DNA of 64,000 nt from Alphaproteobacteria bacterium (lineage in GTDB: Bacteria > Pseudomonadota > Alphaproteobacteria > MPNO01 > UBA830): the NCBI GenBank assembly GCA_965243135.1, contig OZ251539.1:608001-672000 (forward strand), read 5' to 3'. Under the pieces are notes generated by a model. The model was given only the letters and a program-made list of their open reading frames with translations. It was not told the DNA's origin and searched no databases. Below, piece by piece: positions 29,638-48,620 of this stretch. The position numbers and the translations under genes are program-made. Each line of letters begins with the position of its first letter. Position 1 is the stretch's first letter.

Positions 29638-31404
29638 ATGGAGTTGGCGACACCAGATTTTAGCTTCGAAGCGACCGACCGACAGTGGGCCTTGCTGCTG
29701 GCAATGACCCTCCGGCAGCGGGACGAGGCGATTCGGCAGCGCGACGAGGCGCGCCAGGAGGCGGAGGCGTCGCGCTGGAAGGAGGTAAGCGCTCGTCAGC
29801 AGGCAACGTTCTGGAAGGCGCAACACAGCCGATCGCGGGCGCGTGCAGAGGCGGCGCGCAACGAGCTGAAACGCCTGAAGTCGGCCTCTTCGGTGAACGA
29901 GCTCAAGCGGGAAGCGGGCCGCCTTCGGCACGATCTTGCGAAGCTGAGGAAGCGACTCGACGAGACGCGAGAACGCCCGCCTGAAGGCGCGCAACCGCAA
30001 GCTTGTTCAGGACAAGTTCGGTCGCAAGAGCGAGCGCACCCGCCGCTCGCGGAAGGGCGGCGCGGAACGGGAGGCCCGGCGTCGTCGGGGACGACAGCCC
30101 GGGTCGCCGTCGCACGGACGCACGCCTCGCGAGGATTTGCCGGTAGAGGTAGAGGTCATTGAACCCGGGGAATGCCACTGCCCGAACTGCGGCAAGCCTT
30201 ACGCGAGAAACGGAGAAAAGGTCACCGAGTTCGTCGAGGTCGAGGTTCGCGCCTACAAGCGGCGTTGCCGTCGGCCCCGGTACCGCTCGACATGCTCGTG
30301 CGCACCGAAGCAGGAGGTAGTCGCGCCGCCGGCACCGCGGCTGTTCGCGAACACGCGGCCTGAGCGTCTGGAACTGGTTTCTGACCGAGACTTACGCCCT
30401 TCACCGTCCGTTGCGGTCGTTACCGCGACAGTTGTCGATGTTCGACTTCGAAGTCTCGCCGGGTACGCTGGGGGACAGCGTCAAGCGCTTCGTGCCCTTG
30501 TTCGCGCCGCTGGCCGATGCGATTATCGAACAGCAAGCAACGGCTAGCCCACGGCGACGAGACGAGCTGGAGGGTTCACGTCCGCGGCGAGGAAGGCGAG
30601 AATCCCCGCAGTTGGCTTTGGGTTTGCCAGACCCCGGACGCCGTGAGGATGATCGTCGACCCTTCCCGCAGCGCAGCGGCGGCGCAGAAGTTGTTCGGAG
30701 GCCTCGGCGTCGACGAGCCGGTCTATCGCGACCGGTACTCCGCTTACAAGAAGCTGGCGAAGGATCTGCCGAACCAGTTCGTGCTCGTTTACTGTTGGGC
30801 GCATGTACGCCGCGACTTCATGAACATCGGGGTTGGGCGCCCTGACATGAAGTCTTTCGGCGATGAGTGGGTAGCCAAGATCGCGACCCTGTATGGTTGG
30901 AATGCCGAGCGGTCGCGGCACTGGATCTCCGGGGCGAGAGAACAAACCGCTGCCTTCTACGAGGCGCAACGGGAGCTTGAGAGCAGCACATTCTTCGACG
31001 ATGTGCGGCGGCAACTCGGCGACCTGCCGGAGGAGGCGCCGCAGCGCAAGCCGTTGCAGTCCCTGCTGCGTCATCGCGAAGGCTTGAAGGTCTTCGTCGA
31101 CAATCCGGCTGTGCCGATGGACAACAATCTTGCCGAGCGCGCCCTGCGCGGCGCGGCCGTTGGGCGCAAGCTCTCGTTCGGCTCGTTCAGCGAGGCAGGA
31201 GCGCAACTGACCGGGCTACTCTTCTCCATATTCGGCACGCTCGAACTGGCCGGCCTCTCGCCGCGCCACTGGCTCCGCGATTATCTGCAAACCTGCGCCG
31301 AGCGTGGCGGACGAGCGCCCGAAGAGGCGCATGCCTGGCTTCCCTGGGGTGCCGACCCGGAGCGCGTCCGCGCCTGGCGCAACCAGCTTCCCCAAGGACC
31401 GTGA
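29638..31404 (+). pseudogene. IS66 TnpC-like transposase, frameshifted
   Basis: Coiled-coil N-terminus, CPNCG zinc finger, HGDETSW, DRYSAY, CWAHVRRDF, DNNLAERALR spread over several frames. Confidence 0.88.
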
Positions 31405-32288
31405 GTTACCGGTATTGCGGGCGGAAATTCTCGGAAGCCGACATCAACCTGATCCGCGACCTGATCGCGCAACGGGATCCGCCTCTCAAACGCACGCCCC
31501 TGTCGCGCATCCTGTGCGAGCGTCTCGATTGGCGCAAGCCCAACGGCGGCTTGAAAGATATGAGCGCTCGCGTCGCCCTGCTGCGGATGGAACGCGACGG
31601 CCTCGTCGTTCTGCCGCCATCGCAGCTCCGGTCCGCCCGCGTTCGCCGCCCAATTCCGCCGTCTCCCGAAACCGAGCCGCCCCCGTTTCCAACTCCTGAC
31701 CGTCTCGATCAAGTCCGTCCGCTGCGCATCGAACCCGTCCGCAGCGCCAGCGAGGGCCGCCTCTGGAACGCCTTCATCGACCGTTATCATTACCTCGGCT
31801 TCACGCCCATGCCCGGCGCACAGATTCGGTACTTCGTCCGCTCCGCAGAAGGCGAATCGCTGGCCGTGCTCGGCTTCGGTGCCGCCGCGTGGAAGATTGC
31901 GCCACGGGACAAGCTGATCGGTTGGGATGCCGAATGCCGACGGCGCAATCTGCCCTTCGTCGTCAACAACGCAAGGTTCCTCATGCTGCCCTGGGTCAGA
32001 ATCAAACGCCTTGCATCCCATATCCTCGCACAGGTCGAGCGACGTTTGCCCGACGACTGGGACCGTCGCTACGCGTTGCGTCCAGTCCTGCTCGAGACCT
32101 TCTGCGAAACGCGGCGCTTCGAAGGAACCTGCTACCGTGCGGCCAACTGGATCAGGGTCGGCAAAACGCAGGGCCGCGGCAAGCTCGATGTAAAAAACGA
32201 GTATGCGCTGCCGGTCAAGGATATCTGGTTGAAGCCCCTGCGGCGGGACTGGAAGAAGATCCTCAATCGCGGACCATCACCCGGGTAG
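31401..32288 (+). CDS. DUF4338 (DruA-domain) protein
   Basis: FIDRYHYLG, GFGAAAWKIAPRD, VVNNARFL, LETF, GTCYRAANW..VGKTQGRG; GTGA overlap with tnpC. Confidence 0.88.
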   Translation: MSYRYCGRKFSEADINLIRDLIAQRDPPLKRTPLSRILCERLDWRKPNGGLKDMSARVALLRMERDGLVVLPPSQLRSARVRRPIPPSPETEPPPFPTPDRLDQVRPLRIEPVRSASEGRLWNAFIDRYHYLGFTPMPGAQIRYFVRSAEGESLAVLGFGAAAWKIAPRDKLIGWDAECRRRNLPFVVNNARFLMLPWVRIKRLASHILAQVERRLPDDWDRRYALRPVLLETFCETRRFEGTCYRAANWIRVGKTQGRGKLDVKNEYALPVKDIWLKPLRRDWKKILNRGPSPG

Positions 32289-33183
32289 CGAACGCTTACA
32301 TCAGGCTCTAAGAAAGATGGAATAGGAAGAACGATTGCGAACGTAACGCAGCGACGCGACTGTTGCACGATGTGCGGCGGGAGCGTCCGTTTCTGAAGTT
32401 GATAGTGGTAGAGGACGGGCTTGCTTCGAATGGCCCTCATCCATCTCAAGGAATTGAATCTTCGATTCATACTGGTCGGCAGCCGAAAGATCATAAATTT
32501 TTGTTTGAATTAGTGGACAGATTACCGTTCGTGAAACATGCCGAGTTTTCCGATGAGGAAGGTGTGCAGAACGAATTCATATATCTCAACAAAACACCTC
32601 TCAACGACACGAATTTCGACCTCAAGATCGACTTTGTTGAATACTGGAAGAAGCGTCCCGACGGCAGAAAGCAACGCTTTTCTTGGGTTACTGACCTACC
32701 GGTTGAAGACCACAACATGGTGGAGATAATGCGCACTGACGTAAACGAGACCTTCAACAACCTGAAGAACCAAGATTACAACTTCGAACACAACCTCGGT
32801 CATGGTTACAAGCGTCTGTCGAATGTCCTGGCTTACTTGATGATGCTGGCTTTCCTGCCAGATTTAACAGAGATATTGCAATCTGTTTTAAAGAGCATGA
32901 AGGAAAGCCGTGCGTCCCAACTAATTTTGGGAGAAGTTGAGGGCTATGTTCTTCAACTTTTCACTACTAGGATGGGAAGCGCTTTATTGTGCGATAGCGT
33001 ACAAGAATCCGCTTCTGGAACCTTACGATACTTCTTGACATAATACATTTTCAAAGTGTGTAACGGGTTCCTTAGGGGGAAACATAACCAACGAAAGCTC
33101 GGCCATGAATCCGAACGTTAGATGTCTGTCCTGACGGTCGTACCTCCTGCAGAGAAAGTCCTTTGCATTCGGTACGATCACAA

Positions 33184-33411
33184 CAAACGCTCATGATCGG
33201 CGACTGCTCGCCCCGTAGCATGTAACTGGTGGCTTTGCCGGCGTCGCGCCGCTCGCCGACATAACCGTTCCGCGTTCGGGCGTCACGGCGTGAAGACAGG
33301 GCTATACGGGGTCAGCGCCGCAAGACCTCCGAATGGCAAGCGCCGCCGCGAAAAAATCTTCGATTCGCGGAACGATTTTGCGTGGCCGGCAGCTCGGGGT
33401 TAATTACACAG
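33184..33411 (-). mobile_element. TTTG-targeting non-autonomous element, copy A
   Basis: Diverged reverse complement of 47350-47592; CAAA at both junctions (33184-33187, 33412-33415). Confidence 0.8.
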
Positions 33412-34176
33412 CAAAGTTAGCGGGAATTGCTGTTGTCGCTGTAGCCCCAAGAGGGTTTGGCAGGGGGAGTATTATTTATATCCCCCATTATATGAGCATA
33501 GGGGAATTGAGCGACAACGGCGACACAGCGACGCCGACATCGACGACAACCTTTCGCGGCTGTAATCGGGGGGCAATGACCATCGAGGCCGTACGGCGAG
33601 CTGAGGCCGCGTAGGCGGCCCACAGCGCGAAGGGCGTCTCGAAGCAGACATCGCAGCTTCGGGACGGCAGCGGCGCATGACTTCGGACTCGCGCTCGGGG
33701 TCCGGCTGGACAGCGCTGGATGCGCTGATTGCCGCGCTCGCATCCGGGTACGTCTGAGCGTTCGTTCGGTGGGGCCGGAAGGCGCCTCGCCGCTCCGGTG
33801 AGCACGACATGCCAGCGCTGGGCCAAGTCTCGGCGCATGGGCGGAGGCATCCGCCGAGCAATAGGCCAATAGGCCATGCCAATACGCCAACCACGGTCCA
33901 TTCGGCGCATTGTCGTGGCCCATTTCTCCGTTCCCAAGCCGCTCAACCGAGGATCCCACCGTGGGCTTGTGCAAGGCAAGCAAGGTGACTACGCTGGTTT
34001 TCGGAAACAGCACGCAGGTTCCCGCTTCGTCGGGTCGCCTGTCGAATACCATAGTCTCATGCGTGGCACAGGGTCGCTCCCTGGGTCCAGGCGAATAGGC
34101 AGGGCACTCGCCACTTGCGTGTTGTTTCCAACGGCCCGGCACCCGCCGCGCCGTGGCAATCCAAGGGAGACAGCGC

Positions 34177-47055: not shown

Positions 47056-47262
47056 GCAACTAAATCGAACCGTTCCGCGAATCGAAAATTTTTTCGTGGC
47101 GGCGCTCGCCGTTCGAGAATTCGGGAGCGTGACGCTGAGGGCAACCCGTCTGTCTTCGCGCCGCGCCGCCCGAACACGGAACGGTTACGTCGGCGCACGG
47201 CCGGGAGAACCATCCCCGAAGTTACATGCTACGGGTGAGTAGACGCCGATCAAGAGAGTTTG
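47056..47262 (+). mobile_element. TTTG element, copy B (5' eroded)
   Basis: AACCGTTCCGCGAATCG...GGAACGGTTA...AGTTACATGCTAC...GAGAGTTTG. Confidence 0.75.
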
Positions 47263-47302
47263 ATACATTACCTGCCGTTATCGTGGCGATGGAGACCGAA
47301 AG

Positions 47303-48298
47303 ATGAGACAGCGTCCTTTGACCGGTTGGTTGGCCGGCACACTTCTTTGCTGTGTAACTACCCCGAGCCGCAGGCCATAACAACCCGTTCCGCGAATCGA
47401 AGATTTTTCGCGGCGGTGCTTGCCGTTCGAGCATTCGGGAGCGTGACGCTGAGGGCTGCCCCGTATAGCCCTGTCTTCACGCCGCGACGCCCGAACGCGG
47501 AACGGTTATGTCGGTGCATGATAGCGGCGCGACGCCGGCAAAACCACCAGTTACATGCTACGGGGTGAGCAGGCGCCGATCATGAGCGTTTGTCTAGGGG
47601 CGAGCTCGGGCGTACTTGCAGCAGACTTCGACTATACATGGATCGAAGTCCAAGTGGATGGATCGAAGACGAAAAACACGAGCACGGGCGCCGTCGAAGA
47701 TGCCGACGGCACGTCTTTCGGGCTCAGGGGCTCCTTGGCGATTTCCGACTCATGGTATCTCACGGGAGGTTACCTGAAGGAAAGAAAGGGCTTCGGCAAC
47801 GACGTGGCCGGCACGAAACTCGATCTCGACACCGATCAGACGTTCCTCGATTTCGGAGCCGGATATCACTGGAAGCTGGCTGACCGAACCGACCTGTACG
47901 CCGAGGCGTCCGTTCTGGATTCCAAGGTTCGGCACGACCTGCCGGTAGTATCGGTGCGGCCGTCGCCCCGGGGAGGGCCGCCGGTTCCGGTGGTTTCGAA
48001 GAGAGTGGGGACGTTGGACGGAAGAGGCCCTGCCCTCGCCTTAGGAGTGCGTCATTGGGCCGACGATGAATTGGAACTGGAGGCTCGGATAGGGGCCGTT
48101 CGTTTCGTCCATAAAAACAGCCGCACCGTCCGTGAGACGCAAAAGGGAATTTCCGCCGCGGCAAGGTATCATCTCTCGGGCGCACTGGCGGTCGGCAGCT
48201 TTCTTTCCTTCTTCCGCAGCAACGATCCCAATTTCGACAACATCTGGAAATTCGGCCTCTCGCTCCGCTTCCATCCGTCTCGATTACAGGGATCCTGA
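47303..48298 (+). pseudogene. Outer-membrane beta-barrel protein (Ax21/Omp-like) with signal peptide interrupted by a TTTG element
   Basis: Removing 47350-47592 gives MRQRPLTGWLAGTLLCLGASSGVLA-ADFDYTW; amphipathic strands; FGLSLRF near the C-terminus. Confidence 0.8.
47350..47592 (+). mobile_element. TTTG element, copy C (complete, 243 bp)
   Basis: TTTG at 47346-47349 and 47589-47592; removal restores the host ORF. Confidence 0.85.
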
Positions 48299-48445
48299 GC
48301 CTTCCCGAGCACCCGGTTTCCGGGAATGCGCCCGGTGGCCGCTGCGCCCGGACTCCGTTCCTGCGTCAAACGGCCGCGCCAGGCAACAACCTGACGAAAG
48401 AGCCATCCCGGTCGTGCCGACGCCGGGCTGAGCAGGGAGACGCAT

Positions 48446-48620
48446 GCCGCTCGCCGACATAACCGTTCCGCGGGCGGGCGTCGCGTCGCGAAGACAGGGC
48501 TGGGCGGCCCTCGGCGTCACGCTCCCGAACTCTCGGACGACGAGCGCCGCCGTGAAAAAAATCCTCGATTCGCGGAACGGTTTCGCGCGGCCGGCGGCTC
48601 GGGGTTAGTTGCACAACGAA
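48446..48620 (-). mobile_element. TTTG element, copy D (3' truncated)
   Basis: GCCGACATAACCGTTCCGCG...CGCGGAACGGTT...CTCGGGGTTAGTTGCACA. Confidence 0.75.

Follow-up and report, generated by a model that had tools for sequence, protein, structure and literature searches.

A gene-less 243-bp repeat that splits a porin-like gene has the ends of an IS110-family insertion sequence

The window analyzed here, a 64,000-nucleotide stretch of an alphaproteobacterial genome (GenBank assembly GCA_965243135.1, contig OZ251539.1, positions 608,001 to 672,000), contains a short repeat without genes that splits a gene for a predicted outer-membrane beta-barrel protein within its signal peptide. What kind of element is this repeat, which enzyme moved it, and how are its sites chosen? 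The original prediction, made from the letters alone, was a non-autonomous mobile element that lacks terminal inverted repeats, uses TTTG as a fixed core or target, and is mobilized in trans by an HUH enzyme (IS91 or IS200/IS605) or an IS110-type enzyme, possibly as structured ssDNA or RNA. The results indicate that the element is very probably a transposase-less and guide-less miniature (hereafter mini), derived by internal deletion from a 1.66–1.69 kb insertion sequence (IS) of the IS110 family, whose recombinases are of the DEDD type and guided by a bridge RNA.

The interrupted gene and the repeat family

The focal copy (window 47350-47592) is 243 bp long and gene-less, with a TTTG directly to its left and a second TTTG as its own last four bases (Table 1). 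In-silico removal of the element restored an open frame of 250 aa from ATG 47303, with the signal-peptide N-terminus that had been proposed and the expected GGAG ribosome-binding site about 10 nt 5′ of the ATG, whereas with the element in place the frame from the same ATG ends after 25 codons. The gene product was weakly porin- or OMP-barrel-like in Pfam (Porin_4, 27.9 bits, cut-off 27; OMP_b-brl, 27.7 bits, cut-off 28.7). Its mature protein was unmatched in the 25 family genomes searched for an orthologous empty site. A further ATG at 47582, in the conserved terminal CATGAG of the element (47582-47592), is in frame and would open a predicted frame of 238 aa that lacks the charged N-terminus and retains just the tail of the signal peptide.

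Of twelve sequencing runs, none recorded as RNA, 10 contained the stretch or part of it, and these were mostly sponge metagenomes. The filled right junction was bridged by a contig from a second study (X6, record 29). In the contigs of four runs (X1, X3, X4, and X6), which break at repeats and drop rare variants, none skipped exactly 47350-47592 and no joint from 47592 to 47350 was present. Contigs of X1 and X3 had a joint recorded as "goes back 47" at 47593.

Table 1. Positions of the features described in the text. Positions are those of the window unless genome positions are indicated; LE and RE, left and right end of the parent IS.
Feature	Position	Strand	Description
TTTG left flank	47346..47349	+	Core copy adjoining the RE-derived end; reads CAAA when oriented as the transposase
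RE-derived part	47350..47513	-	Last ~164 nt of the parent IS, 3′ of the transposase gene; positions 2-164 match one long-copy end (BLASTN)
Deletion junction	47514..47525	-	12 nt joining the RE- and LE-derived parts; from the alignment of 31 copies and the long-copy ends
LE-derived part	47526..47592	-	First ~67 nt of the parent left end, including the terminal TTTG (47589-47592); positions 177-243 match the other long-copy end (BLASTN)
Interrupted outer-membrane beta-barrel/porin-like gene	47303..48298	+	Split in the signal peptide at 47349/47350; 250-aa ORF once the element is removed
Second copy	33184..33411	+ (transposase orientation)	Own first four bases CAAA (33184-33187); second CAAA at 33412-33415
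Eroded copy	47070..47262	+	Element positions 36-243, 78% identity (BLASTN)
Partial copy	48454..48615	-	RE-derived part only; element positions 2-165, 82% identity (BLASTN)
Subterminal inverted-repeat arm near the RE end	47353..47359	.	7 nt; pairs with 47549-47555
Subterminal inverted-repeat arm in the LE-derived part	47549..47555	.	Partner of 47353-47359
Perfect inverted repeat, 10 nt	47385-47394 / 47496-47505	.	Encloses 101 nt; nearly invariant among copies
Long elements	genome 331578-333267; 1985297-1986981; 2995522-2997181; 3708781-3710745		Found by BLASTN with the mini element

A BLASTN search of the 6.1-Mb genome with the element gave 83 HSPs, which merged into 77 intervals (copies or fragments) with a total length of 13.7 kb. 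Of these, 34 are 200 bp or longer, 26 measure 100–199 bp, and 17 are shorter. The copy at genome positions 2458898-2459140 differed from the focal copy at 1 of 243 bases (99.6% identity) and had different flanks, indicating recent movement. The element is mobile and non-autonomous, as predicted; without terminal inverted repeats, it is better termed a "mini-IS" or MITE-like element than a MITE proper.

The second copy in the window, predicted to be independent and flanked by CAAA, proved real, with CAAA at both junctions. It corresponds to genome positions 641184-641411, lies on the minus strand in mini orientation, and is 82.7% identical to the focal copy. Its insertion point lies within an IS66-family element, some 20 bp from the end, and uninterrupted paralogues of the latter read straight through the site (with 1 nt of uncertainty), as expected if its removal restores the subterminal region of an IS. 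The 200 nt of this IS to the left of the mini had 17 matches in the genome, the one in the window counted. The IS66-family element itself (window 30517-33183 and 33412-33431) matched DDE_Tnp_IS66 at 133 bits, and its next ORF was DruA/DUF4338-like (PF14236, 151 bits). The two eroded copies that had been placed at 47056-47262 and 48446-48620 were recovered by BLASTN at almost the same coordinates (Table 1). Three family copies or fragments lie within the 1.6 kb from 47070 to 48615, around one small gene: upstream, inside, and inverted downstream.

Elsewhere in the genome, three head-to-tail pairs of minis are directly adjacent, two with a single common TTTG and the third with TTG between the copies. 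Four mini copies have an identical 20-nt right flank starting GTACCGGACATATCG, which implies that these are located in, or form part of, a different repeat family or some larger unit that has been duplicated. Another mini is interrupted between element positions 82 and 89 by a group II intron (G000:C1:1990116-1992261, locus L087; Rfam RF02003, 76.3 bits) with a frameshifted reverse-transcriptase gene, in which two RVT_1 fragments scored about 20 bits each, below the cut-off.

Nested inverted repeats were found inside the element as predicted, one pair of 10 nt and one of 7 nt, and none at its termini. The arms of the subterminal repeat changed together, being GTTACA/TGTAAC in this genome vs. 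GTTTCA/TGAAAC in all other lineages aligned; a 7-nt repeat with both arms changed between this genome and its relatives fits the short subterminal repeats of the IS110 group (PMC11208160). Single-strand folds of the element were no better than those of shuffled sequences on either strand (z of -0.8 and -1.1), and RNAalifold on 31 copies gave 0–1 compensatory changes per pair in the internal stems. The suggested transposition intermediate of structured ssDNA or RNA therefore gained no support, although with at most one compensatory change per pair a structured role is neither shown nor excluded.

Long copies with the same ends and intact relatives with homologous ends

Four long elements in the same genome (1.66–1.97 kb) are composed of element positions 1-164, an inner part of 1,455 bp, and positions 177-243. 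The inner part occurred only in these long copies, in partial long-copy remnants, and in short weak scraps. It codes for an IS110-family transposase read against the orientation of the mini in the window; at the focal copy, the transposase of the parent would be read on the minus strand. PF01548 was matched in two of the long copies at 35.1 bits and PF02371 in all four at 27.6–38.4 bits. The four decayed copies are the longer elements that had been expected, with the same ends and a transposase gene, and they bear out the IS110-type enzyme among the options that had been named for action in trans.

All four transposase genes were frameshifted and broken into several frames, and no intact IS110-family gene was found in this genome, in which only two 41-aa scraps matched beyond the four long copies. 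Movement in trans within this genome would thus belong to the past, and the family is probably immobile here at present. Long copies A and B, which are 99.5% identical, are both broken and lie at different sites, suggesting that a defective copy had itself moved in trans.

Intact relatives were found in other genomes. The sister genomes G004 and G002 carry ISs that are 65–66% identical in the transposase region, and the 416-aa transposase of G004 matched PF01548 at 66.6 bits and PF02371 at 73.3 bits. In the PDB it remotely matched the transposases of ISCro4 and IS621 (E about 1e-10 for IS621). A scan of species genomes revealed 72 loci in MAGs labeled Alphaproteobacteria, Thalassobaculaceae, Binatia, and others. 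One MAG held 40 copies of a 1.77-kb IS that were 98.2–100% identical to the reference copy, with 29 unique non-tandem insertion sites.

The boundaries of these ISs were set where unrelated flanks start, based on two copies per sister genome and on the 40 near-identical copies in one MAG. In transposase orientation, the left end of the relatives aligned with the mini's right end over about 50 nt, and their right terminus aligned with the mini's first bases. The LE-derived part of the mini was homologous to the start of the LE of the intact ISs in sister genomes and MAGs, and its RE-derived terminal motif to their RE end. Since the boundaries of intact ISs are homologous to the outer ends of the mini, the latter consists of LE nucleotides 1-67 and the last 164 nt of the RE, and is not an independent repeat targeted by an IS. 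The 12 nt at the deletion junction varied from copy to copy (6-nt indel) and loosely resembled the parent LE around +75-84. The IS110 traits observed comprise the DEDD (RuvC-like) and Transposase_20 domains of the full-length form, mini ends that are the ends of the IS, and an inverted repeat that is subterminal only.

Two MAGs carry a related IS in which the AAAC core is preceded by T rather than C (L016-L024, L074, and L075). Most of these copies lie in a common left context of about 30 nt with a similar right flank; they are site-specific for a repeat, unlike their promiscuous cousin. In one MAG, full-length ISs form head-to-tail tandems (L035, L036, L046, L049-L051, L059, L066, and L072) with two junction types, one A apart in the core run, which could be insertions into the end of a resident copy or relics of circle junctions. 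Head-to-tail tandem copies with one common core occur both among minis and among full-length relatives, but tandems are not circles.

The junction core and guide-like segments

Among the 31 near-full copies, the left junction was TTTG in 23, GTTG in 5, CTTG in 1, and other in 3 (the most diverged copies), while 29 of the 31 ended in GTTTG. The flanking 4-mers were thus mostly constant, not variable. TTTG occurs 18,130 times over both strands of the 6.1-Mb genome, and its constancy at the element junctions is far beyond chance. It is present at both junctions (as CAAA in the other orientation) and once at the empty site, an arrangement that would look identical after a 4-bp duplication. One empty site was observed among paralogues: at the position where long copy D carries a 239-bp mini and a second TTTG, copies A and C show just one TTTG.

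The relatives allowed the two possibilities to be compared. In transposase orientation their order is flank, (G)A, CAA(A), left end ... right end, CAA(A/G), flank. When the 29 unique non-tandem insertions of the active relative were compared, each side had CAA at 28 sites, position -4 was A at 25, and all else was variable; the base after the right CAA was A in 23 and G in 6. At two of these sites the trinucleotides were unequal in otherwise identical copies (CGA...CAA and CAA...CAT), a poor fit to target-site duplication, whereas a mismatch between donor and target core can give that result. Based on these sequences, the data favor TTTG (CAAA in transposase orientation) as a core common to donor and target, accompanied by one or two guided bases. 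The earlier view of a fixed core or target in place of a random duplication is in line with this, given TTTG at 23 of 31 copies and the unequal flanks at 2 of 29 sites in the relative.

Beyond the core, the next two bases were TC, TT, or GT (the complements of GA, AA, and AC, in agreement with the guide-like segments of the parents) in 34 of 43 unique non-tandem flanks, vs. 15.8% in the background of 18,130 TTTG sites (binomial p 8e-20). Expectations from independent positions were 14.4 for TT, 11.3 for TC, 5.9 for GT, and 4.6 for GC, and the observed counts were 12, 14, 8, and 3, respectively. Independent preferences for T/G and then for T/C fit these counts equally well, so that the bias indicates one or two guided or preferred bases and not three guides at work; the assignment of the TC, TT, and GT classes to three guide variants was rejected on this ground. 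Flank class had no clear association with the first base of the element (C- or T-type left end) when tabulated by eye.

An alignment of 13 left ends revealed a conserved block about 130–310 nt from the end. Inside this block of the LE, a segment present in 11 variants repeats the left flank and core of the very copy that carries it. Of 69 copies examined for this segment, 67 were usable (L028 and long copy D were left out, D being read by hand), and 63 of the 67 had a contiguous identity of at least 6 nt with their own left flank and core; the four exceptions were three tandem junctions and one site with a mismatched core. In G004, two copies with 97.9% overall identity differ in this segment, which in each of them matches the flank of that copy over 8 nt. 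In the long copies the segments end ACC-, ACC-, AAC-, and GAC-AAAC, and the copies sit after AC, AC, AA, and GA, respectively. A second LE segment repeats the right end and core. The match spans 7 nt in the relatives and is 9 nt long in copies A and B, and the segment tracks an A/G difference between long copies A/B and C.

By these correspondences, the two LE segments would be the left target guide and the left donor guide of a bridge RNA. In bridge RNAs of the IS110 group, the left target or left donor guide carries the top-strand sequence including the core, and the arrangement found here is the same as that published for these two guides (PMC11208160). For the right side, no guide varying with the flank was seen by eye in the alignment of 13 left ends. 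RNAalifold of these left ends gave a plausible fold with a covariation term of +0.22 and a double change in 11 of 58 pairs, in sequences that are closely related. Rfam 15 had nothing relevant for the element, the long copy, or two intact relatives, left ends included.

The guide-like segments of the parent lie at LE +132 and +200, and the mini keeps only the first ~67–80 nt of the LE. Without both guide segments and the transposase, the mini must have depended on a full-length copy for both in trans. The recombinase and the bridge RNA supplied in this way would excise the mini as a circle joined at the core, and the circle would recombine with any site sharing the core and 1–3 bases on one side. 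So loose a match would explain why the element is found in many unrelated places, a signal-peptide codon included. Because the guide DNA holds the target sequence, it is itself a target, and minis sit exactly at the guide DNA in long copy D and in a fifth, partial long-copy remnant (genome 3825622-3825866).

Alternative origins, known systems, and implications

Three other origins were weighed against a miniature IS110 derivative. The 243-bp repeat could be an independent element into which an IS110-family IS inserts site-specifically, in the way that IS621 and ISPpu9 insert into REP sequences. Repeats are indeed frequent targets of IS110 elements (PMC11208160), and a diverged mini copy (genome 5874207) that reads across the would-be insertion point also allows an insertion. 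Against this, intact relatives in other genomes are not surrounded by the repeat, yet have ends homologous to the outer ends of the mini, with boundaries set by 29 unrelated insertion sites, and the guide-like segments of the long copies correspond to flanking DNA beyond the mini ends and not to anything within the repeat. This origin is largely refuted, and we consider it very improbable.

Other rivals invoke a different enzyme. PATEs, derived from IS200/IS605, and REP/RAYT systems rely on Y1 HUH transposases and single-stranded intermediates, and have a fixed short target, internal hairpins, and no terminal inverted repeats. If an HUH enzyme (IS200/IS605 Y1 or IS91 Y2) had moved the element as single-stranded DNA and inserted it 3′ of TTTG, the fixed tetranucleotide at the junction, the internal hairpins, and the lack of terminal inverted repeats would all be accounted for, and these are what the element has in common with PATEs and REP/RAYT. 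However, Y1_Tnp (PF01797) had 0 matches in this 98.8%-complete genome, in a search that was positive in 6 of 14 control genomes, the ends are those of an IS110-family IS, and the hairpin stems show no compensatory change. The Y2_Tnp profile had no match in the genome either, but the controls were silent too, so that this search carries no weight. Mobilization by an HUH enzyme, one option of the original prediction, is disfavored and scarcely credible. The same holds for an ordinary MITE of the DDE type that duplicates 4 bp of target at a preferred TTTG, a reading to which we give just as little credence: the TTTG on both sides resembles a duplication and only one TTTG is found at the empty site, but terminal inverted repeats are absent, the transposase of the full-length parent is DEDD and not DDE, and 2 of 29 identical copies of the active relative have unequal flanking trinucleotides.

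The preferred origin, internal deletion of an IS110-family IS, has a published counterpart. MITEPpu9 is the ssr9 module of ISPpu9, an IS110-family element of Pseudomonas putida KT2440 (PMC12288879). It is likewise gene-less, has ends like the left and right ends of the IS110 family, is proposed to use a transposase in trans, and is found both near and away from full-length copies. It differs in its 8 copies, its expressed sRNA gene, and its specific REP-associated sites around an AG dinucleotide (PMC12288879), whereas the present family comprises 77 copies or fragments, is inserted at a core of 3–4 nt with 1–2 further preferred bases, and has members within genes as well. The literature thus already contains a MITE-like unit belonging to an IS110-family IS (PMC12288879), and since the ends of the present element do match a cataloged IS family, IS110, the element is not a new class.

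Similarities to IS621 and the IS110 group include a recombinase with DEDD and Tnp domains, the absence of terminal inverted repeats, a probable core common to both junctions, and a left end (~300–357 nt) longer than the right end (~165–190 nt), as well as LE guide-like segments (target-left and core, donor-left and core) and a short subterminal inverted repeat (PMC11208160). The main difference lies in the target, which for IS621 is 11 bp long (9 programmable positions and a CT core; PMC11208160), while the natural sites here are constrained at only about 5–7 positions. What stands out is the copy number, the insertion into coding sequence, and the unusually loose targeting of this clade compared with the 11-bp target of IS621, the last offered as a lead and not as a claim of priority. 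Tentatively, and at slightly less than an even chance in our estimation, the clade may represent a natural low-specificity bridge-RNA system, in which the target loop reads only the core and 2–4 bases on one side and leaves the right side unread.

For annotation, the element accounts for dozens of interruptions and intergenic repeats in a sponge-associated alphaproteobacterium, including an inactivated outer-membrane protein gene. A repeat family that looks like an orphan becomes interpretable, as a mini dependent on a protein and a guide RNA made elsewhere. The insertion sites provide natural data on the minimal target pairing tolerated by an IS110 recombinase, which are relevant to the engineering of bridge recombinases and to their off-targets. 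If the low-specificity reading is true, almost any place with TTTG followed by T/G and T/C would be open to the IS, which has 29 unrelated sites in one MAG, and to its guide-less minis, with 77 copies or fragments in the present genome, and minis landing in the target-guide DNA of the parent can disable the very bridge RNA on which they depend.
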